Origin: Eukaryota sp. GEM-RC1
Lineage: Eukaryota
DNA: 64,000 bases
Assembly: GCA_040285855.1 (NCBI GenBank)
Contig: JAUFOQ010000013.1
Coordinates: 62,001 to 126,000 of the forward strand
Reading direction: 5' to 3'
Positions within the stretch are counted from its first letter, which is position 1; each line of letters starts with the position of its first letter. The notes beneath the pieces are model-generated. The model saw only the letters and a program-made list of their open reading frames with translations. It had not been told where the DNA came from and did no database searches. The position numbers and the translations under genes are program-made. Shown here piece after piece: positions 2,183-61,296 of this stretch.

Positions 2183-5143
2183 ATTAAAAGATTTGTAGCA
2201 AAAAACAAACTAAAAAAGTAATGAAATTCTGAGTAACGAAAATTCCTTCCTCCACTGAATAGAATTACAAAAACACATTGAAGCAAATATACAACGTATA
2301 AAAAACACACGTTCAAATCCAACACTAACAGAACAAAAAACATCAAATTCAATAATGATAATAGAAACAACCAGGCTTTTTTTGGAAATCATTGTGATTT
2401 TGAATCATTTTAGAACAAATACACAGTAGACCTGGACCAAGAAGCGCAAGTAATTCAGATATATGTACTAAAGTTATCAGACACTCCTAATAACAAATAA
2501 CGTAGACCAATTCTGTGAGTTTGATTGAAGAATATTTTCCCTTGCCATTACATTTTTTAACATTTCTAATGTTAAAGAACTCCTTATATGAGTTTTCAAA
2601 ACTGTTGCAATTAATTAACAAGATAAGAATAGTGATGTGATAATTGTGCATTGTAAGTCTGTGTTCAGAATACAAGCATAATTAAGCATAAACAAGAGAT
2701 TGATCACGTCAAGAATTGACACGTGTCCACTTGGCACAGACAGAATGAGAGTAAAACCCGCCTAATTAAACTTCCTGTGGTATAACAGCTTGGTAAAAAT
2801 ACAACTGAAATGATACCAACACTGATTATAGTGACAATTAAATTGGTGTCAAAATAGACATAAAAGTTGAATCATTGTCGTTGTGAAACTTAGTCCAAAT
2901 TTCCCTCAGATTGACCTTCATAAGTTCGTGATTCATTAAAAGTCTGGATCTAAGTTCAAAATGACTCAGCTTAATCAAATGGTTAAGTTACATTCTTACA
3001 AATAGTTTTGATTGTGATTTGTAACTTAACTTAGAAATGACACCGTCAGAACTGAAGATAAAAGTGGTAGCAAGACGTGAAATTTAGAATCACACTAGTT
3101 GAATTTCAAAATATTGAGAATTATAAAGTTCAAATTGCAAATCTGAGTTAAATATTAGTTATCGTAAAATATGATCATACAAGTCCTGATTTTTGGCCAG
3201 AAATAATCGATTTCTGGAATAATAGTGAGTAATGATTTTGAACAAATTGGTGAGATGCTAAACTAATGACAATTTTAAAAGTTCAGCAATTTACAGTTTT
3301 AATAAAACCATTGATGTTGGACAAATTATAATTGTGTTTTGGAAAGATTCAGTTATTGACTCGTCAAAAGTGAAGGTTTACTTAGACCTTTGGTTCACCA
3401 ATCATGGAACAGCAGAAGCATATCTTTTAGTTAGTTGCTGATATTCAACTGAGCAATGAGAATAAAGAGCAGTATGTTGACCAGGAATGTAACCACACTA
3501 CAAGACAAATGAAACTCGTTGAAAGGGTTCAAAGAGTTAAAGTGGGAAAGTTCTTAGAATAATCACAATCAGCAACTGTGACATGGTCATTAACTGGAAG
3601 GAAAGTGGATGGATTGAAGTGACCATGAAGAAGGTTTAGATAAAGACACTTCTATATGCGGTGTTTTGTTGGAGTGGGTTTACGATGGTGTTTGTTGTCA
3701 GAATTTTTCGGAAGGGGGAGGAGAGAAGCTTTCTTCCCAAAGCAAAATCAAGACTGTCAATGATAGTGGTGCAAATATCAAACAGAAGAGAGGGGAGGTT
3801 CAGAAGGAAGAAGAAGATTAAACAGGGAGAAGTTGGAGATGTTCCTTCCCTGGCAGAGTAGATAAAGTGACGACAACGGCAGAGAGAGTACACCATTCAG
3901 AAGCGTATACCTCATCGAATCCACCTTCTACAATCGAGTTTTGGAGAAAGATATGATCGGAGAGAAATTTGATGTCCTGTGAATACGCACGAAATGCTCC
4001 GACCAACTCACTCAGAGAAGAGTGTCATCTCAACTCCTCAGGAAACTGGAGACCACAAAGGATACAATGCTTTCAACACGTTAAGAACAGAGAATACACT
4101 GTACGTTATATGTAAGAGAAAGAGACGAGTGCTATATCAAGGGAACTGGAGATGTTTGATATTGACTAGGAGAGAACGTGTATGGTCATCAATACATTTT
4201 GCTTGAATACCACATTCTTGTTTTTGTTGTGTCCTATGTCGAACTATGTAGAGTGGTCAACAACAAGGTACTGACCTTGTTAAGGAGATATGTCAAAGTT
4301 TAAGGAGAATCTTTTGTTCTGTAGTATGTGAAGTTGATCTACACTGGTACCAAAAGGCTGTTTGACACTGATACTTCACTTCACAACTTACGTTTTTGAA
4401 CGAAACAACATTGAAAGTCCATTATTATAGTACGTTTATCTACTACCTTATTGTCTTTAACATAAAAGTGATTTGAATATTGAGTATTTGAGAAGACAAA
4501 TAACGCATTTGAAATACGGAACCAAAACTTTCAACTTGTGCTGCATATTTGAAAGGGATTTTAATAAACATATGGTCTGTTTTGTCCCTCTGCGAAAATT
4601 GTTTGAATAGAAATCAGAATAGAAAGTTCTTGTTCTCACAGACAATCTCAGTAATTTGAGAAGCAAACATAATTGTAGTAATTCCAGAGATTACTGCAGT
4701 AATCGTAATTGTAGGAATTCCAGAATTCATGACCTAACAATTGACAACAACTCAGTAATTTTGAAGAATGTTTGATATATCTTTGAAACAAACCTGAACA
4801 AAAGGGTTGAAAGAAGTACATATTCAAAAATGCAAAGGTAATGATGTTGTATTATCTGTAGTTTTAATAATTGGCAAAGACAACAATAATGTTAGATGAA
4901 CGACTACATGTACATGTTTTTAAATTCGTTTCTATTTATACTATAATTCCTTGAGTAAATAGAGACTGATCAATAGTTTCTCACTTCTAGTCTGACTCAA
5001 TTCTTTCTTCTTGGTTTGCTCCTATTTTCTGCCCTGCTTTTGGAGAAACACAACCAAGAAGCAATTTTTCCCTCCGATTATTCCTAGACCGTTTTCCAGT
5101 AGACTACTTTGTTCATCTGTCTTCTGTTTTGGTTATGTACACT
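2183..5143 (+). repeat. ~3-kb dispersed repeat, copy 1
   Basis: Colinear and highly similar to 31947-35043 (e.g. GATTGATCACGTCAAGAA, CATACAAGTCCTGATTTTTGGCCAGAAAT); no recognisable intact protein. Confidence 0.9.
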
Positions 5144-6204
5144 TTTCGAATCGAAGGTGAGAGAAATCGAAGAAATTCTTTCAGTTGATAGAAGTCGAAT
5201 CCATCTACCTCTCCATCAGTTTTGTAAGAGCTGGACATTGGAACAGCAATTGAAGCATTATTATGTTTCTCTGCCATGGTTTGGAAGGAGACTGAGGGAG
5301 TCATTGTTCGATTGGGAGTCATAATGTTTTCATTTTATGTTCTTCGAGGAGCTGTAATTGTTTTTGTTGCTTTAGACGTTAGTCCGCCGCCACCCATGAT
5401 GGCCGATTTATATCATGAATTGTTTTTGTCTTCATCATCAGCATTACTAAAAATAGTAATATATAAGATCCAAATGAAAACGAGAAGTTCCAATGTTATA
5501 ACCAACAATACTATGTAATTTGTCGGTTTGTTATCTATATTAACAGCTTCAGTTTTTGGATTACCACTTGCATCCGTTATTGGTAATGATCATGGAGGGG
5601 TGAGTGACGTGAATTTCTGTGTGTTTGGTGTTTCGAATCAAAAGGCAATTTCCTGAATAAAATTTATAACATTTCTACAAAAATCAAAGTTTCTGGGGAG
5701 ACACACATCTTTGATGTTGAGGTATTCATACAATTCAAGTTTAGCACAAATTATGCTTCCTAACCACCCGACGGAAATTCCAGAGGAGCTCATGAAGATA
5801 TCTGCATTACACATTCCTTTTTCGTCATTAGTTAAATCATATCCGATCTTCAAAGTCAAAAACCAATTGCGGAACCTAGTAATTTCCAGTTGCATTTAAT
5901 TTGAAAAATATAATTTTTGAAGAAAAATGACAAAAACATCAGATCTAATATTATGCTTCTCTACGGACTTTATTCCACAGAGGTTTTCGAACATTATCGT
6001 AAAATTGGGAAACACATTGAGTTTTTCTGTCCCTTCCATTAGGACCATTTTTTACCGAACTAATTAAGATTAGAATTTTCGCATATCTCAAAGTATTGGA
6101 TGAATGATCGATTGATTCTGAGGCGAATAAAGGAATAACAGAAACAAAGTGATTAAAAAGCTTGATTAAAACCATTCATTAAAGAAGCAGATGAAAGAAA
6201 TGAC

Positions 6205-7343
6205 TTGAGAGCTCTGGAATTCGTTGGTCCTTTCTTTTCTAAGATTGATGACTTGTTGAATGATGACGTGATGGCCATCACTACTGAAGGGTTTAAAACT
6301 CTTGTTAAGTACTGTACTTCTACTGAATCCCAATCGTGGTTTATCAAATCAATTGTGGAATCAATTTTGAATCAACGTTTCGATTTGAATGAATTTTTAA
6401 ATATCTTATATTCTTGTTCAATTGAAGCCTTTTCTTTTCAACAATGGAATGAGTTGTTGTTTATTCCTTTAACAGATGTTGAAGAATTGGAAGCCGATTT
6501 GATGAAGTTGCTGTTTACAAGTGTTAAGAATCTTTATTTTGACTCTTTGGTGAAGGAAAATTCGGTTTTGAAGGAAGATATGTCTGAATTAAGAATTAAC
6601 AATTATCATTTGGAGCGCAAAAATTCTGATATAACATCACTTACTGCTGATTTGACAAAAAAATTGACGCCTTGAAGACAACAATTTTTGATTTAGAAAC
6701 CAACAATTCTGATTTAGCAATACAAGTTTCTAGTTTAACAAGTGAAATTCACAATTTAAGTGCAACAAGTTCCAACGAAATAAGAAAAAGTAATCTACAT
6801 GATGAAGAAGTACAACTAAAAAAGACAGGACCCCAACCGGTGTATCAATCAATTCCTCAATCAAACGTGATTAAGTTTTCTCCAAATAGGAAACATATTC
6901 AGTTACAAGTTAGTGAGGATGGAAAGAGAGTTGTTGTTGGAAGTGGTGGTAATGTACGCAGAAATATTTTGGGAGAAAATCCACTTCTTCCAGGTAATGT
7001 TTATACTTGGAAGTTGAGGTACCAGGGGTATACTAAGAATCTTGTTGTTGGAGTCATTGACGAGTCAAAGTTTAGTGTCGATGGTGATTGTTTTGAAAAT
7101 GCCCACTGTTTTCACAATTATGCCAATTACGTTTCTGGTTGTCTCTCAGGTAACAAGACTCATTGGAATCTTGATGAATTACTCGAAATTAACGCAAATT
7201 TAATCACTTACACTTTAACAATCAAATCTATGAGTTATACTTCAATTAATCTTACTGGAACTCTTCCCAGGGTAAGTGAAGGTAATTATTATCCATGGGC
7301 TTGGATATATTGTAGTAATCGTGTTCTTGAAATTGTTGAATAA
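6205..7343 (+). CDS. Coiled-coil + SPRY/B30.2-like protein, frameshifted at ~6672; 5' part probably extends upstream to ~5700
   Basis: Heptad-like region followed by VSEDGKRV, GNVYTWKLRY, NLVVGVID, YYPW motifs typical of SPRY-type beta-sandwich domains. Confidence 0.6.
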
Positions 7344-7790
7344 AAAACAACAATTTTGAAATATTCAAATGATTTTGGTTTAAAAATCAGTGAATATATT
7401 GATATGTGAGGACTTCTTAATTCAAAAATGTAGTTACAACATGTCACTCAACAAGGAGTTGCATGATAATGAAGCAGATTTATGTACTGAGACAAACATA
7501 CAACAAGAAACTAGATATAAACAAAGACTATTAGAATTTAAGTGCAAAAAAACTCCATCATTGGATATATTTCAAAAGCTTTTTTCCAAGTTAAAACTAC
7601 ATAAAAAACTAGCCCAAGTGAATAAATATCACTAGCAAGTCAAAGATCTGAAAAAATCTACTCAGGGATAGTATATTTTTGTTGGCCACAGGTGTTATGA
7701 TGTGGCAGTGTTGAAGTATAGTGTAGCTAATTATAAATCATATCATCGTTTCCCCCTTGTTATGTCTACCCATTCAGGTAACAATAATTA

Positions 7791-8690
7791 GTGTCCTTAG
7801 AAGCTGGAGCCGAGACAATTGCCCATATTGTAGCGAACGACCTATCATCTAATAACTTTGAAATAGTTGTTAAGCTTGACATACGAAACGCTTTCAACTC
7901 AATAAACCGTCAAACCTTGGCTGCTCATCTTGAACACACAATCTTCGCAGGCTACTTTAATGTCATGTATTGCTCTCCCTCTTATCTATGCTGCAACAAC
8001 ATGAACATCAAATCCACCTCTGGCGTTCGTCAGGGTGATCCCATATCCTCCTACTTGTTTGCATTGGGAATGAATTCCGTTCTTATCCAAATTGCCTCAA
8101 ACTTTCCTAGTGTTAAGACATTAGCGTATCTGGATGACTTATTCATCTTAACCAATAAAAGTCAAATTGATAAGATAACCTCGTTTCTTGTAAAGGAACT
8201 TGCTGCCATCTCTCTCGATCTTAATCAAGAAAAAACAGAAATTCTATCCCTACCTTTAGGTGGAGAAATCCTTGGTTGCTTCTTTGGCAATTGCACAACT
8301 AAACATCTACTAAAAACCAAAGATTCCCTTACTGAGAGTATCCACCTCACAAGGCACATTGATATTCAATCTGCATTGCTATTAATCAGATTTTGTATCA
8401 ACAGCAAGCTTACAGCAGGCTTGCAAGAACATGCAACCCTAATCTTTCAACTCAATTCTTTCATGAAGTTCATCAAGTAATTATTGATGAACTGGAACTC
8501 CACCTGGATTCCAAACTACCTTTTCCCGAACTCTTCCAATCTCCATGGGAGGGCTGGGCATTACAGATTTTTCTGCTATCTCTAACCAGTGCTTCTCTGC
8601 TTCCCTGGCTGCCGCTTTTATCTGCTCCAGCTACTACTTTATTAACGATACGTCTTCTTTTGACAATTCCATCATCCTTTCTTTAACCAA
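7791..8690 (+). pseudogene. CRE-like non-LTR retrotransposon reverse transcriptase fragment
   Basis: GAETIAH, LDIRNAFNSI, GVRQGDPISSYLF, YLDD, LLLIRFCINSK, then MGGLGI in a shifted frame. Confidence 0.85.
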
Positions 8691-11600
8691 TGACATTAGT
8701 TCTCGTGGTAGAAGCGACAAAGACTCGACAGCTCTCAAGATCCCTCGACAGCTTCTTGGAGCCCTCGAGATGAAGGATAGTTCTACTACAGCCTTATTTG
8801 GCCCTCGCATTCACAGTCCTTCTGGTTACCCACCAGGTTCCAGAGAAGATGAATCTCCATTTAAAGATCCCCAGACAACCAATCCTGGTCCTCTGGATGA
8901 TGGTATCTCCCAAACAACCCCTCAAGATGCTTTGGATGTCGCTGCTAACCAGACAACCTCTCACGGTCCTCTGGCTGGTTCCTCTGTCGTATCCCCCTGA
9001 CTTCGTTCAAATTGAAGATTTAACACGGGAGGAAGAACGTCTGTTCCATAAACAACGTCTTGAAGCAACTCAGAAACAACTAAAAACTGCAGCTGATAAA
9101 GTCGACAGGTTAATGTACCCCAAACCTACTCATGGTTGGGCCGTCCCGGTTCATAAGTTAATGACAGACGAGGAACGTCGGAGATATAACAACGCAGAGA
9201 AGGCTAAGCTAGTCCAGCGCCAGTTCCCTGAGGCTACTCGGAACCCGCATAATTGGCATATAGCCGCGATACCGAATGGGCTCATTCCGTTCGCCAACTG
9301 CCAAGACTCGCTCATTGGTATCGATGATCAACTTTGTTTGATCCCTACAATGTGACCCTTCGAAACAGATTGAAGAAAGCCAAGCATATTTTAATCAGAA
9401 ACGTACCACCGATGACTCTTTTAGAAGTGATCAGTGGTTATCTTGCAGATAAGTTTGGTCCAAGACGCTGAGATACCTGTAGATTTCCCCTCAACGAATC
9501 TTGGGATCCAGCACATGGAATTTCTGTCAAGCCGTTAATGGAAACGTTTCACCCATCTGGCCAGAGTCTGATGTACGAGTACCCAGCATGGTACTAATAC
9601 AGCTTGTCCATTAAGAGATGCTGCTGTAAGCACAGCGTGAGTTCCTACTGTCCCTGAATACTACAACTTGCCACCTGGCAAATCGTCAGATCAAGTTTGG
9701 AGTATTTTGCCTCCTACTCGATACGAGTCAATCGTCCTATGGTATGAGAGGCGACCAATTATCGACTCCAACTGAGGGCTCAAACAAATGGGAACAACAG
9801 ATCCATGATCCTCTGTAGGAAGAACCGCGACTGTTTAGGTCCTCTCAAATCTTCACGGTAATCCACCGTTGTATCAACTTTCTCTCCCATTCCCATCAAT
9901 TCTTGATCAATATTTCAAATGATGACGTGACTCTCGAGCTAGATCTTTTCAACCAAACCAATGAGTTCCTCTCTCAGTTCATTGACATTGTTTACCATGA
10001 GTTCTGGTCCTCTAATGACACTTACTCTCTGATCAAAAGACCGCGATTTACTCGATGCGACCAAACATCCAGTAATTTAAGCTTAAATTTAATCAAGTGT
10101 GATCAATTACAGTGTCACACTGAGTAAGTGCGAGATACTTACTTGGGACAATCCTGGTGAAGCTCTTGGTGGATTTGTCGGTAACAACAATAATTCTTGT
10201 ATTGCTGACAAAGTTAATTCGATTGTAAGATATGTTGAAAAGTTACGATGCTAGGTTGTTGTTACAGTAAACTCTCACTTTAAATCAGAAAATCTGAATC
10301 AATTGAGAAGTATCATCAAAGTCACAACGATCAATGGAGATTCTGAGTAGTTGAAATTACTTCTTCCACTGAATAGAATCACTAGAGGTTGACTTTTAAA
10401 AACTGAATGACATTGCTTTGTTTGAAAACAGTATTCATATAAAATCATTAAATTTTAAATCTAGGATAATCGAGCAATATTCAAACTGATGATTTAAATC
10501 AAGACTTATCAAAAGTTGATGCCACAAAGTGAAACACTAGTCAAAAGAGAGCATTGTTTTGACTAGTTCAAACAACTAAATTACAGCGCAATGGTGTTTC
10601 TCAATTATCAAGCCACAACATTTAAAAACAATTAAAATATGAGAAACAAAAAGATTCTTGAAATAATCCGAATTAATAAAAAAGTCAAAAGGCCCAAAGA
10701 AAATGTGAAAAAGAGATGTCATCAGTACTGATCCATAGAAACGTCATCAAAGAGAAAATCACGAGGACTGAAAGAATGATTGGAATAACAACGCTCAAGG
10801 CTTCCAGAAACTGATGGGTTGATTATAGAAGGATACGTTCATTAGAAAGAGTGTCTATAGATTCCGAAAAGTGACAAGCTATTGAGATGAGTGTCGCCAC
10901 GTATGACATGACGTGTCATTGGTGTTATCTGATCTGTTGCTATAAATAAACACTCTTGTCTCTCTTTGTTCTTCGTGCCTAGATACGTGATTTGCCAACA
11001 TGAGGTAGAACTTCTTAAGAAGTGACAGTAAATCTGCCTCTTTACATCCCGTTAAAGAAATAAAAAGAAACAACAGAAGATGTTGTAAACAAGTAAGAAG
11101 TTGTAGACAATCAAACAAGACAAGATCACTAGGTTAAGATGTTAGACATGATAGATATGTATAAGACCAATCATTAACAGGAGCGCACCTTTTCATTTGG
11201 GCATGGCGTCGCTCTCAATAGAGTAGTTGTTGATGACGTCATCATGAAGAAGAAGCAGAATACCTACGTGCATTCTTCGTCCATCATTCCTACTCAAAGT
11301 TCTTCATAGAGCGGTACATTCGTAAGACGTATGGAACCTCCTTACCTCCTTAAACGATGAAAGGAGGAACCAAACGGAAGTGTAGTGACAAAGTTTCCCC
11401 ATTTGTTATATTCCCATGAAAGATGATGCGAAACTATTACAAGATGTTATCTTCTTTGAAACTGTTTAGAATCTGATGTCCATGAATAGTTTAGAAGTAA
11501 CAGATATAAAAGTAAGGTTGAGACTGTAAGTTATGAGTATGCTGTTTCACACGGAAGTAGAGAAAAGGGAAAAGTCGCATGATCAGGATCACCATAAGGA

Positions 11601-16500: not shown

Positions 16501-16553
16501 AGAATGCAGCACTCAGTGTTCGCTTGTGGTCTCCCACCAAACTACTAACTAAG
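16501..16553 (-). rRNA. 5S rRNA gene, 3' part (nt 68-120)
   Basis: Minus strand CTTAGTTAGTAGTTTGGTGGGAGACCACAAGCGAACACTGAGTGCTGCATTCT, running into a T4 Pol III terminator (16498-16501). Confidence 0.92.
16539..16553 (+). repeat. 15-bp target-site duplication, left copy
   Basis: AAACTACTAACTAAG, identical to 18464-18478. Confidence 0.95.
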
Positions 16554-18463
16554 TATTATCAACAATTCTTTAAATGATGCTCTTTCCTCTACTCTTCTCT
16601 GTTCTAAAATCATAGCCCTTAAGAAACCTAACGGTGGGGTTCGACCAATAGCTATTTCGGAAATTTTTTACCGGATTAGTTCACGTTATTTATTGAAATT
16701 TGTTGATGCTCCTTACTTTGAAAAATACAATCAGTTTGGAGTCAAAGTTAAATGTGGAACTGAAAAAATTGTTCACAAAATTCGACAATTGAAAAAAACT
16801 AACAGTTTTCACACTCTTATTTCTCTGGATATTCGTAATGCATTCAATACTGTGAAAAGATCACACATTTATGATTTGCTTCAATCAGAATTTCCTGATT
16901 TCATAAATTTTTTCAATTTTGGATATGGGAAGAATTCTCCTCTTATATTCAATCATTCTTTAATAAGTTCTTCATCTGGGGTTAAACAGGGTGACCCTTG
17001 TTCACCTTTCTTTTATTCTTTGGCTACACTTGGTATTCTTAAGGATTTTTCTTCTTCTCCAAACGTTGAAGTATTATCATATCTTGATGATACTTACTTG
17101 CTTTTAAAAAATGAGGAATCTGCAGAAAGTGTACTTGAGGGTCTTTCTTTTAAATTTCAAAATTTGGGTTTAGTTTTAAACTTGTCTAAAACTAAGATCC
17201 TCGATGTGGATGATGATCTGTTAGTGCTTGGATCTCCAGTGGGTTCAAAACAATTTGAAACTGAGTTTTTGAAAACTATGTTTCGACTAAAGTCCATTGT
17301 TTCCTGTCAAACATCCAGGATCTGCGTCTACAGTTTCAGTTTTTACTTTTTCGATATTGTATTAATTCTAGACTTATGTACTTTTGTAGAACTGTTCCTG
17401 CTGACAATTCCTTTCTGGCACTTAGTCAATGGTCAAAAGATTTCACTGATTTTCTTTTCACAAAAGTAGGTCCATTACCATTTCCTGAAATCGTATATTT
17501 ACCTTTCAAATTGGGTGGTCTTGGCTTACAAGACTTATCTAAAATTAATCATTTTGCGTATGCAACATCTCTTTTCATGCTGTGAAAGATTTGAACTTCT
17601 CTTCTCTTCTAACCACTAATCAATTGAATTTCCTTTTTCAACTTTAAATTCCAGTCTTGTTGATAAGGATGATTTATTTGATATGTCCCCGGTTCAAAGT
17701 TTCTTAAGTTATGAACTTTATTTAATTCAATTAAATTCTTTAAAAGAGAAATTATCAAAGACACAACTTCATGTGTTAGACTCCTTTCAAATGCGTGGGA
17801 GTTCTAAATTTATGTCAGTTCTACCTATTGCTAATGATTTTTGGTTTTCTGATGATCAATATTTGTCATTACTTAAATTACGTTTATTTTTTGAAAATGA
17901 AATGGACAAATGTGAGTTGTGCTCTTACAAATTTGTTGGTTGTGACCACAAATTTCAGTGTCGCAAAACGTCAAAACTAATTAAATTAAGACATGACGAT
18001 ATTAAATCAATTTTATCTAAAAATTTCAATTTGGAGGAGGAAAAATTATTTAAAGTTGGTTTAATTGAATTCTTTTTAGATCTTGTAATTCCGAAGCAAA
18101 ATATTGCTTTCGATGTGACTATTGTTGGTGGAAATGGCCATCATCCGATGGATTCTTTCTATTATAGCTACGCCAAAAAAATCAAAAAGTACAAGGTGTT
18201 AAAAGACTTGAAATTAATTAATGATTTAATTCCACTTGTATTTACCGTACATGGTGGAATTTTCAAAGAAACTTTTCAAACTTTGAAGAAATTTGGTTAT
18301 ACCCAGATTCTTGATGAAGTTTCTTGTAAAATTGTTAAAGGAAGTGTTCGTTGCAAGAATGCGTATTTGAATATATGTAATTATGTTAGTGAAAAAATGT
18401 ATTATTAGTTGTTTAGGTATTTCCATTAATTTTTCCATGTATTTGATACTTTTATATTAATAA
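16554..18463 (+). mobile_element. 5'-truncated CRE-like RLE non-LTR retrotransposon inserted in the 5S rRNA gene
   Basis: Frame open from 16555: IIALKKPNGGVRPIAISE, LDIRNAFN, GVKQGDPCSP, YLDD; then CINSRLMYFCRTV, PFKLGGLGL; then CELC-x8-H-x3-C, RHDDIK, FLDLV..FDVTIV, KKIKKY, PLVFTVHGG. Short 3' UTR, AATAAA at 18459, A-tail merging into the TSD. About two frameshifts. Confidence 0.93.
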
Positions 18464-18545
18464 AAACTACTAACTAAGCCTTTGGCCACTTAACTTCGGA
18501 ATTCGGAATGGGATCCGGTGCTATGGACCACGTATGGCCGCATTC
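18464..18545 (-). rRNA. 5S rRNA gene, 5' part (nt 1-82)
   Basis: Minus strand GAATGCGGCCATACGTGGTCCATAGCACCGGATCCCATTCCGAATTCCGAAGTTAAGTGGCCAAAGGCTTAGTTAGTAGTTT. The 5' GAAUGCGGC pairs with the 3' GCUGCAUUC (helix I). An ATTTAAA box lies at about -30 to -24. Confidence 0.92.
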
Positions 18546-20699
18546 ATGAGTTACATTGTGATTGTGGGTTTAAATTTGGTGAGTACTATACTATTGGTGT
18601 ACTAATACTAATACAATTGGTATGTGATTTGTAATTTTGTATTGTACAGAGTCATGTTCAGAGTAGTAGATAGATTGTACATAGTTATGTTGTATCTATT
18701 ATACAATTTTGATACGAACTTGCAATCTTTAGAAGTTGAGTCTGACCAATTATCTTGTATATGTGTGACATAGTATTACACTGTTTTATCAATATGTTTG
18801 TGTTGTATAGTTATATGTGGTATTGTCATTGTTGTGTAATTCAAAAATTTGTATAGTTTCAAGTATCAGTATTAAGATGTATGTAACACAAGTGTGGTCG
18901 AGTGATATGGTATAGTAGTTAGTACAGATGAATTATCATCAATTTTTGTGATTCTGTATATACTTATAAAACTATTGGTATAAAACCTTACAAAATATTT
19001 AACAGTATTTAAAATTTGTCACACTCAAGTAGTACTGTTCTATTCGATTAGATGTGAATATGAGTACTGATAGTGTAGTGTTGGCAAATAACCTGACGCA
19101 ACGCAACGTCTGACGTAACGCAAGTATTTTTCTCATCACGTTGCGTCACGTCGTGACGTACTTTGACTGTTTTTTTTATATAGTGTTATGCAACCATCTC
19201 TGTGATGACGTGATGAGGTTATCCTTCTGTCATTTGCTGTTATTCTTTTTCTCTATGCCAACGACAACATAATATCTGTTTATTTCTCAAACAAAATGTT
19301 GTTCATCAACAAGTGGGTTCAAGTCGACTTGAATTTCTGACACCTCACATCAAGTCGACGTGAATTTTTCAAAACTAAAACAGTAAGATAAGTGCAACTA
19401 CCAGAACTGAATCAAAGAAACATATTAGATAAAAAAGTTCAGTCCGATCGGATGTTTCGGATCGGATCGGATTTTCGATAAAAAAATCCTATTCCAAGGT
19501 CTAGTAAAAACACAGAGTTACAAGTATGACTACCACTTTTTAACTTAATTGTAGCAAACGAGGAAAATCGATGAGGTGAACATGCAACGAACGAAATCAA
19601 TCTTAATCCTGTTGTAGATGGAGCTATCAGGCACTAACATGGAAGGCGATGAGGTAGAAGAAAACAGGAGGTTCACGTCAGTCACGACAGTAGAAGACAC
19701 TAGACTAAGAGTTCTATGAGAGTCTGTGTGTAAAGGAAAAGAAAACGGCATGAAGAAGAAGTGGCGGATCGTAATCTAAAAAGAAACTTTAAAGAAGTGA
19801 TGTTCGTACTCCTCTCTTTTTAGAGGGGAGAGGGGTACTTTTAGAGGATCATTGGGTTACGCGCCACTACTCGAAATGTTGGTTATCGAAATGTTGATGT
19901 TAATGTGAAAGGAGAAGCAACAAGAGAAGCAGAAGAAACCGACGACTGATCGGAAGGTACTGATAGAGAGGAGATGTTAATCTCACAACTAACTCATGTT
20001 CATTCGAGGAGTAAATCGTGAGATGAATTTCCTTGAAGGCAGATATGTGAATCATTAAGCATTGCTCCTTCTTGATGGATCTCAGTGCCTTGTGACACTC
20101 TCTCTTTAAAACAAGCTTCAGTTGCTGATCATCTGTAACATCTTTTAATTCTCACTTCTCAGTATTTGTCTGTCTGGATGTCATGTTTCTCCTCTACTTT
20201 CTACATCTCTCAACATCATTTCTTCACTTAGAGTCTTTGTCAGGGTTCTTCTTGAACAGAGCGACTCCGCCAAACGTATTCCCAGCATGAACATTCTGCT
20301 AGTGTTGTTATCTCTCTCATAATCAAAGAGAGATCACACTGTGTCCTCAATCATTCTTTGAAATCTCTGATAACAGATGAGATCACTATGACGTCCATTT
20401 CTTTATGTTATTCATCGATGATAGTGACCTGATATGTAGATCATTTTAATATGACTGTAATTAGTCAGAAAATTGATTGTAAATTGAATGATTGTTTTTG
20501 ATCGATTCACGAGGGATCTTTTATTTGCTGAAAAGAATTCTTGTTAATTCTATTTGCTTTATAATGAAAGAGCCTTTTGTTATTAATTTTTACTCTCTGT
20601 GTTCTTTTTCTTCCATTGTTTTATCGGTCTGGTATTGAAACATTAATTAATTAATTAATTTTGAACTAATGATCATCCCTCAACTGTACAGAAAACTAA

Positions 20700-24722: not shown

Positions 24723-24762
24723 TTAAAACTTTTGGGTGTACCGAATCGAATTAGATTTGGAA

Positions 24763-24860
24763 TGAAGTGGATCGAAGTGGATCAAAGCGGATGGAAGCGG
24801 ATGGAAGCGGGTCGAAGTGGATCGAAGTGGATCGGATGGAAGTGGATCGAAGTGGATTCG
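24763..24860. repeat. (GGATCGAAGT/GGATGGAAGC)n 10-mer tandem array, likely a subterminal repeat of the adjacent hAT
   Basis: About 9 imperfect units read directly. Confidence 0.8.
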
Positions 24861-25092
24861 AACAAACAGGATCTGGTTTCATCGCACCCGGATGGGTGTT
24901 TAAGCAAATCTTAATGTTTGTATTTATTAAATTTGTATTTGTTTGTTTATTATTATGATGATTAATGAATAAAACATGCAAATATCTATTTATTCGGCGT
25001 CAGCAACATACTGATTCTTGTATCGTCGGCTTTCAAGATTTCGTTTCTTTCTGTTGCTGACAAAAGTTTGGAAAACTGGTTCCGATTTCCGA

Positions 25093-26378: not shown

Positions 26379-27567
26379 GCAAGATGGAGGGAAGCCTATG
26401 TATTCAGTAGAGTATAGTTGATACCAAATTAATTCTCACAAGGGTTATCATCTACTAGTACATATTTGGAATCAATCATATTTATTTTTGTCGGTACACG
26501 TACTGTACGTACGTACGTACGACACGGTACGGTACGCCTAAAATCGCCTCGGTACGCAACATTTGCGTTCCATGATATCAATTAACTATTCAGATCTTTC
26601 TTCTTTAGCTCGTTCATAGACATTCAAAAATTCTTCAATGAGAAATTTTATGTATAGTTCTACTTAGGACACAACAAAAACAAGAATGTCAAAAAACAGA
26701 TTGGTGAGCTGAAAATTGGTGAGCATATTTCTTTTTCCCTTTTGACGACTTGTTTTGCGTCCAAAATCAATCACTTTTGCGCTCAATCAATCCTGAACTT
26801 ACTATTGATTCAGCCAAAAAATTTTACTCTTTGAGAACTAAGTTCTTAAGTGATCTTGTAGAGGTTAATGACTCGAAATTGCCTTATCACGCGTTTTCAG
26901 CAGCTAATTTTGGCGGTGTGGGTTTTTCACGAGCATCATACTTAACCAAAAGTGCGTTTATTGGTGGAATGAAGAATTTTCTATTTGAATTTAAATCCAG
27001 ATACGGCTTCTTGTTTAATGAAAATCTCATTCAGTCTACTCATTGGTCAGTTCCGTTAGTCTTAGTTATTGACGATTTGGATTTGGATATTTGGAATAGC
27101 TGTTTTCCTTCTCATTTACCCAGTATTCCTGAAAAATCTCCATTGTTTCTCCCTTTATGTGTAGTCAAACTTTAGAATAAGCTTTTGAAGGTATTTGAAA
27201 ACCTGGATTTTGAAAATCGTTTTAGTATTACTAAAATTAATAATCCCGTTTTTGCTGCTTTCTTAAATGATATTAAGAATTCAACTTGTTTGATCACTCA
27301 ACAACCACGTCCTTTTGGTTTGCATTTGTCTGATGAGGCTTGGAAATTAAATATGCGATTGCGTTTAGGTTTGTTTCTTGTAGAATTGCTGGACAATTCT
27401 GAGTGCATTTGTAGTCATCGTCGCAGTGCAACTTTTAGACATGTAATTAATTGCACCAAATTTCTTTAATTTCGCTCAGTTCTTCATAATGCTGTAAGAG
27501 ATGTTACATTTGAAATGTTTAAGGCTCATGGATTTCATGCCAAAGTTGAACCTTTATTCAGTAAGTT

Positions 27568-27815
27568 CTTTTGTGTATTCTTTTATTTTATTATAAATGT
27601 AATAGATCAAACAACTAAAATTTGATATCATTAAAACAACACCCGTCGCTATCAAACCTTACAACAGCTTTGTCCTCATAAAAGGAACTCACTGCTAATA
27701 CAGCTTTGGAGATGATTAGGGCAATTGTTTTAAAAACAGTAAAAACCATCCGATTCATTCATAACATATGATCAAAACATTTGTTCATCCTATTTTTTAC
27801 GATTTTTAAAAAAAA
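27568..27815 (+). mobile_element. 248-bp non-coding poly(A)-tailed retro-insertion with 10-bp TSD
   Basis: TCAGTAAGTT at 27558-27567 and 27816-27825, A8 tail at 27808-27815; removing it restores the frame EPLFSKLGLALINNFRRG. Confidence 0.85.
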
Positions 27816-37318: not shown

Positions 37319-38060
37319 ATGTTTTACAAAAAGGTCCTAACCAGAGTATTAAATTCACAATCCGCCTTTCTTTTGATTAAGGAATGTATCAATGTAAAAA
37401 TCAATTGGATTGCTCGCACTGTTGATCCCACTGCTACTCACTTCTTTCTTCGCTCTATCTTTCAAGACGTCGTGAGTGAGTTGGCCACTCGCACAGAAAT
37501 GCACATTCCACATCCCAACTTGGTTTCTTTACCAGTCATTCTTGGAGGTCTTGGTATTACTTAGTGATCTCAACCAGTTTACTGATGCCAGTATTGCGTT
37601 TGCTGTTGTAGTTGCTGATTTCTACTCGGTGAACGACCAATCACTGTTCTCTCAAGAACGGCGTACTGAACTGGCATTAACACTGCAACTGCTCCTAGAC
37701 AAACTGGACACTGCCTTTGTCCAGCTCATCCCTAATCAGCTCCAAGGTCTACAAGTTTTCCTAACCGAAAACTTTTTTAAAGGAAAACAACAGACTTTGA
37801 TTGATCACATCTACTCCTCTGATCCCTCTTACCGTCCTTATTTGGATCTCCTTCTCTAACAAGTACTTTAATCTTGTTCTGAAAGTGAGACTTCTTGCTC
37901 CTTTATCCAGAAGACTTGAAACAGGTAAATGTCTCCTGTGTAATTCACCTGCTTCCCCTGTGTTCCATTCCTTCAATTGTAGCAGAACCGATCGTTTGCG
38001 ATTGGTGACGTCACGATGAAGTAGTCAGTATCATGGCAAACGGCTCTAACTTCGATGCTG
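37319..38060 (+). pseudogene. CRE-like RLE retrotransposon fragment
   Basis: LLIKECINVKINWIARTV, LPVILGGLGI, CLLC..FHSFNC, SR(H)DEV. Confidence 0.8.
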
Positions 38061-40964: not shown

Positions 40965-41801
40965 TCATAAATCGAAACAGTTTAGAACCGATAAAGATTT
41001 AAAAGGAAAAGAATCCGAATTTTTATATGAATACTGATCTCCTTCGTGAAGATCTCTGTGCATCCTGCCAATACGAACAGAAATGCCAGATTTAGTAATG
41101 ATAGTTTTGCAACAATCGAGGCAGAAACATAAACTGAACTTGGAAAGAAACGAAATTGAATTCGTTTTTTGAGACGAAGTGATCTGGGCACTTACTCGAG
41201 TTAAAATGTTGATACATGGCTTTTTTTTGTACCAAGAGAAGAAGCACAATAAGGACTGGATAATAACTTCATTGTGGCGTTGGCTTCGAAGTTTGTTTGT
41301 TGACTGGTAATTCATTACGTGAAAGACATGAGACTTTGAAGTGACTTTTTTGTACAGACCAGGCACTTATTGTCTGTGATGAGAACTGTTAGAGGGAGTA
41401 CCAATTTACTTTTAACAAAAATTTTAAAGTAATTACTCAAGAAGCTATTGACCTGATTAGTGAGAATCTAAGTAAGATTCTTGACAAATCATCGGTAATC
41501 TGTTCAGCATCGGATAGGAGTGATGTTTCTCTACTCTTAGAATAAAAGGTTATGAAACTTTCCTCGTGAATGGGTAAAGTGAGGAAACACAGGATCTTGA
41601 AGAATCAGATGAAACTGTATGAGACCAATACATAAGTTTTGAGTTAATACAGTACCTAACTAGCAACAATTTGGATTGAAGAGGCAAACCAATTAATGAG
41701 TCAAAAAGAGGTAAAAGAGCACGACTTTTAGAGGTCAACCAATTTCTTTCAAAATATGTTCTTAAAAGATATGTATGACACTTTGCAGAAATTGCTTTCA
41801 T
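40965..41801 (-). pseudogene. CRE-like RLE retrotransposon fragment
   Basis: LLLVRYCINSKLMYWSHTV; zinc-finger remnant followed by RSQRHNEV. Confidence 0.7.
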
Positions 41802-59297: not shown

Positions 59298-61296
59298 TCA
59301 ACACGAAATTCGATTGTTCGACATCCTACGAATTGAAGAAGTAATTTCAAAGTCAAATTCGTTAGCCCACAAATACAATTCAGTTATGGAACAATTATCC
59401 TTTATACCTTCTGCCAACGCCAAGGCACCTACATTTCCGATAGAGTTACATCCTAGATCAACCATTGAAACTGTAGAATTCAACCTCAACATCTCAGCAA
59501 ACGCAATAGCACCCTTGTCACCAATGCTATTACTTCCTAAATCAACGTTAGTAACAGTGTAATTGGCCTTAAAAACATCAGCCAATGCAATAGCACCTTC
59601 ATCGTCAATAGAATTGCTTCCCAAATCAATATCAGTAATTGACTTGTTGATTTTCAATTGGTTGGCTAATGTGATAGCTCCTAAGTTTGTAATACAATTT
59701 ACACCTAGATTAATCTTAGTAACAGTGGAATTGATTGTTAATGTTTCAGCCAATGCAATGGCTGCTTCATCTTCAATAGAGTTTTTCCCTAAATGAATGT
59801 CAGTAACAGATGAATTAAATTTTAAATTTTGAAACAAACAAATAGCACCTTCATTTCCAATGGAGTTTTTTTGTAAATCTAAATCAGTAATTGAGGAATT
59901 AACGTTAACAACCTCTGCCAATGCAATAGCACCTTCAAAACCAATAGAGTTGTTACCTAAAAAAATCTGAGTAATTGTTGAATTTACTTTAAATGCATCT
60001 GCCAATGCAATAGCACCTTCAAAACCAATAGAGTTGTTAGTTAGATTAATCTTGGTAATTGTGGAATTAACTTTAAATGCATCCGCCAATGCAATAGCAC
60101 CTTCAAAACCAATAGAGTTGTTACCTAAAAAAATCTGAGTAATTGTTGAATTTACTTTAAATGCATCTGTCAATGCAATAGCACCTTCAGGACCAATACA
60201 GTTGTTACTTAGATTAATCTGAGTAATTGTTGAATTTACTTTAAATGCATCTGCCAATGCAATAGCACCTTCATTGCCAATAAAGTTGTTCTGTAAAAAT
60301 ACATCTGTGACTGTACAATTAACTTTCAAAACCTCTGCCAATGCAATAGCACCTTCAGGACCGATAGAGTTGTTACCTAAAAGAATTTTAGAAAGTGTTG
60401 AATTCAGTTTCAAAGCATCCGCTATTGCAATAGCACCTTCATTAGTAATAGAATTATCCTGAAGGTTTAAAATGGAAATTGTAGAATTAACTTTGATAAC
60501 TTCAGCCAATGCCACTGTTCCTTTATCCCCATTAAAACAACCTTTAAAAACAAGACTCAGCTCAGTAATTCCTCTTGAAAAAAAAGATTCAATCTTTAAA
60601 GCCTCAACCAATTGAGTAAGTATATCAGCTTCAATTGTTAAAAACAAACGTTTCAGACATGGGAAATGAAAAGGAGAATCTTTCATTAGGAATGCCACGT
60701 CATCACTACAACTGAGACCTGTAGATAATCCTGTAATTACTTGGGAATAACTCAAAAACTCTTCAACTTTAAATTGTTTGTCTACAAACAAGAAAACAGA
60801 GTGTACGTTGGCTCCAAAGAAAGAAGCAAGAGAAGAAAGTAGAGGGAGATCTTCAGCAATGACTGGAACCGTGTTTCTTTGGAAAAACACGTTTACTGCT
60901 GAGGTGGACACTTCGTAGAAATGTTGGCTTACAAATCCAGCTGATTTCATGAAGGATTGTAGTTTCATTAGTGTATTGCGGAGACAACGTCGAGGGAGCA
61001 GTATGGTTGCCTTTGAGAGATGTCTTAAGGAAGCGTTGAAGCAAGTGAAGATTAATGAGAACCAATAAAGAATCCTGGAAGTGTAATGAGACGGGAGATT
61101 CGTGGGAAGAAGATGAAAGAGTTGTAAGTTGAGTAGAAGCGATGTTTGCTCGTTCTTCTGCGGAATCAGACATATCGTTTGCGACAGTGTTATCTAGGGA
61201 GCGTAAGGGTTCTGTGGGAGTCATTATGAGTGCTGGAAAAAGTTTGACTTTAGAGTTGTGGTCAGGTGCTGTGTTAGATCTGCTATTATTTGACAC
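59298..61296 (-). CDS. NLRC3/RI-like leucine-rich-repeat protein; 5' ORF 60853-61296 probably fused
   Basis: About 14 28-aa repeats LxxNSIGxEGAIALAxxxKVNSTIT in 59298-60968. Confidence 0.9.

Follow-up and report, generated by a model that had tools for sequence, protein, structure and literature searches.

The window, meaning the whole 64-kb stretch of DNA that was analysed, contains a 5S rRNA gene on the minus strand that is split by a non-LTR retrotransposon with a restriction-like endonuclease (RLE). This identity of the insert (16554-18463, plus strand, 1,910 bp) is confirmed by a non-LTR reverse transcriptase (RT), by a C-terminal CCHC knuckle, RHD motif and endonuclease, and by the marks of TPRT that it carries. 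The element is a recent, 5'-truncated copy, and its source, on a reading that we favour with middling confidence, is a CRE-like family of low copy number with specificity for this 5S site. The first-pass annotation of this DNA had placed an RLE-type retrotransposon inside a 5S gene, and the detection of both gene halves by Rfam together with an exact 15-mer at both junctions bears this out.

The split 5S rRNA gene and its junctions

The 5' part of the gene (nt 1-82; 18464-18545, minus strand) is covered by a match to Rfam family RF00001 that spans 18545-18438 (48.2 bits, E 5.8e-07). The 3' part (nt 68-119; 16502-16553, minus strand) has a match ending at 16501 that scores under the gathering threshold (22.6 bits, E 0.0085), and it pairs with the 5' part to form helix I. 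Excision in silico of 16554-18478 gives a 119-nt 5S with a 9-bp helix I containing one G-U pair, followed by a run of four T's at 16501-16498 (minus strand) that is likely to be the Pol III terminator of the gene. The rebuilt gene, helix and terminator had all been noted from the sequence, with a length of 120 nt that counts the first T. The rejoined 5S has a fold energy of -40.5 against -30.2 ± 3.4 for shuffled sequences (z -3.0), and none of 300 shuffles folds as low. As the split 5S is the sole gathering-level Rfam match in the window, and no tRNA gene was found there, the gene lies outside any short-period array. Approximately 550 bp upstream of the gene, ACGT/TGACGT words are unusually frequent over a short interval (19080-19165).

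The longest repeat common to both junctions is an exact 15-mer (16539-16553 and 18464-18478) corresponding to 5S nt 68-82, the stretch that the first-pass annotation had named as duplicated. It has no further exact copy in the window, where three other sites match it with three mismatches. The 15-mer opens with AAA and is preceded by just two further A's, which are the only ones that are certainly not target sequence. Since the three leading A's of the right copy may belong to the tail, the duplication measures 12-15 bp and the position of the nick is certain only within 3 nt. The earlier reading of a perfect 15-bp duplication is therefore right as to the exact repeat at both junctions and too precise as to its length, and the first nick stays on the 5S sense strand with its position resolved to within these 3 nt. 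Similarly, the element end given previously as AATAAAAA (18459-18466) includes three A's that belong to the repeat, while two are surely non-target, so that the tail has at most five A's as assembled. The 3' UTR (18409-18463, plus strand; 55 nt) is T-rich, ends in AATAA and is continuous with the A's of the duplication.

The insertion cut falls in a stretch of the 5S that agrees with the Rfam consensus. In Xenopus numbering, nucleotides 68-82 take in the intermediate element together with the beginning of box C, so neither part of the gene retains a complete internal promoter.

The inserted element

The element begins abruptly at the point that corresponds to residue 650 in the related protein P0220, from which it follows that it is 5'-truncated; its coding strand is the plus strand and the 5S gene lies on the minus strand. 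Both its truncation and its antisense orientation had been recognised from the sequence. The RT domain (16555-17270, plus strand), with RPIA at 16642 and YLDD at 17080, matches PF00078 (E 5.5e-23) and is 50% identical to residues 650-906 of P0220. Sequence matches to the RT in the PDB are group II intron RTs and R2, those to R2 being weak (E 1e-06 to 7e-03). A post-RT thumb or linker region (17265-17575, plus strand; profile E 5e-18) contains an LPxxxGGLG motif. The CCHC knuckle (17911-17997, plus strand) has the spacing C-x2-C-x8-H-x3-C with RHD nine residues on, and its C, C, H and C are present in 97, 99, 95 and 94 of 100 aligned proteins. The RLE follows (17998-18408, plus strand), with an LD motif (D at 18079), a second aspartate at 18112, KIKKY at 18178 and the stop codon at 18406-18408; the two aspartates are present in 97 and 93 of the 100 proteins.

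A profile of 45 homologue C-termini matches the knuckle and RLE together with E 5e-21, which, with the PF00078 match, upholds the earlier call of an encoded RT and CCHC finger. The predicted structure of the RLE reaches pLDDT 79 when built on the 100-protein alignment and 36 without an alignment. In Foldseek all seven matches to this model at E <= 0.001 are R2 structures (E 4e-07, TM 0.58 over the query for an R2 match). The profile and the predicted fold agree with the PD-(D/E)xK type proposed previously, except that the PD reads LD in this element by a change from P to L. Word-indexed protein searches with the RLE piece gave no match, and matches in the ESM Atlas are to unnamed or RT clusters only.

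The marks of TPRT in the insert are the target duplication, the 5' truncation, an A-rich 3' end with a very short tail and the absence of LTRs. An LTR retrotransposon or DNA transposon was rejected because there are no terminal repeats, and a SINE3-type capture of 5S because the 5S halves flank the element, in antisense orientation and with an overlap.

The coding region is not a single open reading frame. A frameshift-aware alignment places three one-base shifts at the same breaks against both P0220 and P0082, and at every break a single base is missing from a T run on the plus strand: a T5 run beside an A4 run (17266-17270), a T4 run (17572-17575) and a T5 run (17634-17638). No stop codon occurs along the aligned path. 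This pattern is that of long-read homopolymer error, and the assemblies of the named relatives are nanopore-based (PMC11316075; papers given by PMC number were available as excerpts, and what is drawn from them holds for those excerpts). The shifts are thus likely to be sequencing errors and the copy young, an age with which the exact duplication and the paired helix I are also consistent. Programmed frameshifting was rejected as first choice, as there are three shifts and every one is a single base short in a T run. The same losses suggest uncorrected long-read errors in this stretch, and to that extent they would suit an assembly artefact in which a 5S gene and a retrotransposon were joined chimerically. 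A misjoin would not preserve the order of the gene halves and give them an exact overlap at each end, nor place the 3' end of the element exactly at one junction, and we consider it very improbable.

Relatives and architecture of the family

In a first protein search the relatives of the element were 27-39% identical, and many came from Eukaryota sp. TZLM1-RC, TZLM3-RCL and GEM-RC1, which are Skoliomonas metamonads (PMC11316075). The host is likely to be an anaerobic protist and a metamonad of this type. An exhaustive search identified a skoliomonad protein, P0074 (KAL0246879.1), that is 98% identical, with three substitutions in 245 residues. Its first two residues differ, and its out-of-frame tail is identical to that of the element, the first of the three frameshifts being common to both; judged from the sequences, P0074 is probably a second copy or an allele of the element. 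The next relatives are P0075, P0220 and P0221 (52%) and P0076 and P0077 (46-47%). Gene models KAL0215424.1, KAL0208496.1 and KAL0205782.1 belong to a sister family.

Among the 76 RTs placed in a tree, ten form a group that includes the element (SH-aLRT 97) and is separate from the abundant CRE-like clade found in these hosts. This tree is a quick maximum-likelihood search with SH-aLRT support only and a Tx1-like RT as sole outgroup, and it places the element among CRE-like database proteins, including one from Kwoniella, with no named CRE reference in the set. The CRE-like assignment made in the first-pass annotation is one that motif supports, with a knuckle and RHD that fit the SLACS/CRE pattern and E and D-D spacings that fall short of it. 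A search of viral contigs by RT alignment gave no relative. Many CRE-like RT loci (L002-L072, contigs CAXXBX01) were seen in a single 'Dehalococcoidia' MAG, which is likely to reflect eukaryotic contamination of the bin.

The full-length sister proteins P0220 and P0082 contain an RNase H (PF00075 E 9e-14 and 3e-18), followed by C2H2-type fingers and the RT, and in P0081/P0225 the RNase H-like match is weak (E 0.13). The N-terminal zinc fingers are seen in P0220, P0082 and P0225, and the corresponding region is cut off in the copy inserted in 5S. P0082 and P0225 also have a short RLE spacing and a D-x-T-x-VGG motif in common with the inserted element. By comparison with these sisters, the full-length parent of the element would have an RNase H at its N-terminus together with C2H2 zinc fingers, and the group appears to be an undescribed RNase H-bearing CRE-like lineage.

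The subclade has few copies: its clusters at 90% contain 1, 3, 6 and 4 gene models, whereas those of the other CRE-like clade in these hosts contain 46, 33 and 20. These counts are unreliable, because gene models in the assemblies concerned were called after repeat masking (PMC11316075).

Evidence for and against recognition of the 5S site

One junction pair is known for the element, and the evidence for its specificity is otherwise indirect. A related RLE family, NeSL-1_TV, has Trichomonas as its host. This family targets tRNA-Pro genes, and four of the five RLE clades, CRE included, are mostly target-specific (PMC4640811). A chance hit would more often involve an abundant family, so that the low copy number of the element favours 5S targeting. 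The small share of the genome that 5S genes would occupy, the agreement of the cut stretch with the Rfam consensus and the youth of the copy count on the same side.

The principal alternative, which is a real possibility and somewhat weaker than the reading that we favour, is that a weakly specific or non-specific CRE-like family struck the 5S by chance, with the aid of a few T-to-A pairs at the nick. Pairing of three T's with the A-tail would aid priming at any T-rich nick and counts against 5S specificity. CRE-like relics are dense in this DNA, abundant families in these hosts have a scattered distribution, and the 64-kb window contains four other decayed relics, all of other families (7740-8570, 26682-27571 and 37349-37998, plus strand; 41613-41747, minus strand), of which 26682-27571 is close to the abundant skoliomonad clade (E 5e-51). 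None of the four adjoins an Rfam RNA or a tRNA. If a genome of 12-25 Mb with 10-200 5S genes is assumed, 5S makes up 0.005-0.2% of it, and random insertion would give 0.07-2.8 hits in 5S per genome for 1,400 copies and 0.01-0.6 for 300 copies, or a number of order one if there are 50-200 5S copies. Scanning many windows also selects for such hits. Against chance, the copy belongs to a rare family and not to an abundant one; decay has affected most of the relics in the window, so that insertions as young and clean as this one must number far below 1,400; and five random insertions in the window would hit a 119-nt gene with p of about 0.01.

Other parts of the window also contain repeats. Two long dispersed pairs with 86-96% identity (2193-5071/31947-34972 and 45930-46772/51893-52740) are probably other mobile elements, an 84-bp tandem array at 59337-60539 overlaps an open frame of 631 codons (minus strand), and 24749-24873 is a minisatellite with a 10-bp unit.

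A second 5S junction, the lack of which also speaks for chance, was not found among viral contigs, metagenomes or 74 loci of distant relatives. The 5S-junction motif has one match in the window, none in the viral contigs and one in the metagenomes (contig L001), which is not 5S and was rejected as a chance match, having no Rfam match at E <= 1. No split 5S was present at any of the 74 loci, which are 24-38% identical and many of which lie on short contigs; one has a 5S gene, intact and unrelated, and one has tRNAs, the latter being two oppositely oriented genes that lie some 2.9 kb upstream of a CRE-like RT (L067, 1667-2121). Locus L074, where an intact 5S lies near an RT, was rejected as a second insertion since its element is APE/Tx1-like and ends at a U2 gene. 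There (3231-8749) the A tail joins U2 at a Keno-type site, followed by U1 and the intact antisense 5S, on what is a eukaryotic contig within a bacterial MAG. No subclade gene model was found to run into 5S-like sequence, and the translated 5S halves gave short chance matches only against 226 proteins and 12 subclade models.

The arrangement of the sister families bears on a further alternative. In TZLM1-RC, 13 subclade models reduce to ten loci of three sister families, and 3 of 33 cross-family pairs lie 20 or fewer locus tags apart where 0.09 would be expected (p 0.0003). The association is weaker at a tight threshold (one of 33 pairs within 10 tags, p 0.048), and control comparisons with 29 other CRE-like tags, among the matches listed, are near expectation (1/290 and 2/406). 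This test is post hoc and based on ten loci; one control cluster entered it with 15 of its 20 members, among the matches listed, and 14,500 genes were assumed from the highest tag. The co-location fits shared target zones, and subtelomeric or repeat-rich zones would give the same pattern. In one gene model, P0227, a partial member of one sister family is fused to a complete copy of a second. The junction (residues 147-175) includes seven consecutive F, which reflect a long T run and not 5S, and may mark the target of that family or its 5' end. The sister copy P0081/P0224 lies, by accession order, no more than ten gene models from the start of a 6.9-Mb contig, which hints at a telomere-linked family like GilM/Cnl1.

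The family could be specific for another repeat or motif, such as a repeat linked to telomeres or a different Pol III gene, with the 5S as a secondary look-alike site. Besides the co-location and the copy near a contig start, this would be in keeping with CRE-clade relatives that target telomeres or spliced-leader genes (PMC12857005, PMC12278014, PMC10088271) and with Utopia families of relaxed specificity whose insertions lie in sequences resembling their target (PMC4640811). There is, however, no candidate for such a primary target, tandem repeats of TTAGGG type are absent from the duplication and tandem telomeric hexamers from the whole window, and we regard this alternative as unlikely.

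The insertion would have followed the TPRT scheme (PMC13708176). From the geometry of the junctions, the RLE would nick the 5S sense strand at nt 79-82, and the freed 3' end, with up to three T's, would prime cDNA synthesis on the A-rich end of the RNA. A second nick in the other strand 12-15 nt away would give rise to the duplication, and cDNA synthesis would have halted after about 1.9 kb to leave the 5' truncation. The site is likely to be read by the zinc fingers of the full-length protein, to judge from the sister proteins, and the RNA strand may be removed by the RNase H. The antisense orientation means no co-transcription from the 5S promoter, so the element would need another promoter. 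Read on the 5S strand, the A run is T5, a sequence that would end Pol III transcription at the junction.

Comparison with known elements and implications

The element resembles the CRE clade (CRE1/CRE2, SLACS and CZAR; MoTeR, FoTeR and Cnl1; GilM/GilT) in having an RT followed by CCHC-RHD and an RLE, in its target duplication and A-rich end and, in its full-length sisters, in the C2H2 fingers. Its knuckle, C-x2-C-x8-H-x3-C-x9-RHD, fits the printed SLACS/CRE consensus, whereas the RLE spacing is shorter (RHD-x12-14-E and D-x10-D against x19-33 and x12-14 in the consensus; PMC12857005). It further differs from the clade in that PD reads LD, the sister proteins have an RNase H before the RT and the tail has so few A's. 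The known CRE targets are spliced-leader genes and telomeres, unlike the 5S here (PMC12278014, PMC12857005, PMC10088271).

With R2 the element shares the predicted RLE fold and TPRT insertion within an rRNA gene, although the RLE region is only 12-19% identical and the R2 target is 28S. R2 is co-transcribed with pre-rRNA. The antisense position of the element does not allow co-transcription with a host RNA of this kind (R2 rDNA context in PMC13580325). Utopia, of the NeSL clade, and NeSL-1_TV are likewise low-copy RLE elements in small-RNA genes, with U2 and tRNA-Pro as targets in place of 5S, and oomycete Utopia also has an RNase H upstream of the RT and several families in one array (PMC4640811). 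That position of the RNase H has been called unique to oomycete Utopia (PMC4640811); here it occurs in a CRE-like lineage.

Mutsu of zebrafish is also a non-LTR retrotransposon that disrupts 5S genes. It has an APE endonuclease and belongs to the Tx1 clade, and the element described here has a C-terminal RLE and a site at nt 68-82. Mutsu has two ORFs, carries L1-group Repbase names and inserts about 20 nt from the 5S 5' end (PMC5340908). The first-pass annotation named Mutsu as the 5S-specific element, a list that is incomplete, as Dada-5S and Starships also target internal 5S sites (PMC8869645, PMC11162782); both are DNA elements without an RT, and neither is an RLE retrotransposon. The printed target of the Dada-5S DNA transposons falls downstream of the nt 68-82 site when compared with the 5S of L074 (PMC8869645), and 23% of 222 Starship sites, which comprise at least five target sites, are in 5S (PMC11162782). 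These DNA elements show that 5S targeting has arisen on several occasions.

In the excerpts of the literature searched, no RLE retrotransposon targeting 5S was found. The 2025 survey of Fell and colleagues reportedly may have 5S among its RLE target preferences. According to reviews, it mined RT-RLE elements, CRE included, in 4,464 animal assemblies and gives several preferences (PMC13586686, PMC13580325). RLE targets described elsewhere are 28S, U2, spliced leader, tRNA-Pro/Arg/Glu and microsatellites (PMC4640811). A 2024 review names just two LINEs in 5S, Mutsu and, on FISH evidence, Rex3 (PMC10946416), 5S arrays of Tribolium contain Jockey-like elements (PMC11202950), and the excerpts of PMC9977147 and PMC9940879 hold nothing relevant to 5S-targeting RLE elements.

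A bolder reading, less likely than not, is that a CRE-like lineage of metamonads acquired an N-terminal RNase H and split into several low-copy, site-specific families, one of which, still intact and active, cuts 5S at nt 79-82. Should the flanks of other copies not be 5S, the result would amount to a clean but unremarkable LINE insertion and a new subclade of modest interest. The RNase H upstream of the RT would represent a second origin of that arrangement, in a deep-branching protist group that lies outside animal-only surveys. R2-like site-specific RLE elements are becoming tools for gene insertion, for which new natural targets are sought, and a 5S-specific RLE, if true, adds a conserved multicopy eukaryotic target and a compact single-ORF gene writer. 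Such an element would be the first of the RLE type with 5S specificity, cutting within the internal promoter of the gene, and it would add one more independent origin of 5S targeting to those of Mutsu, Dada-5S and Starships.
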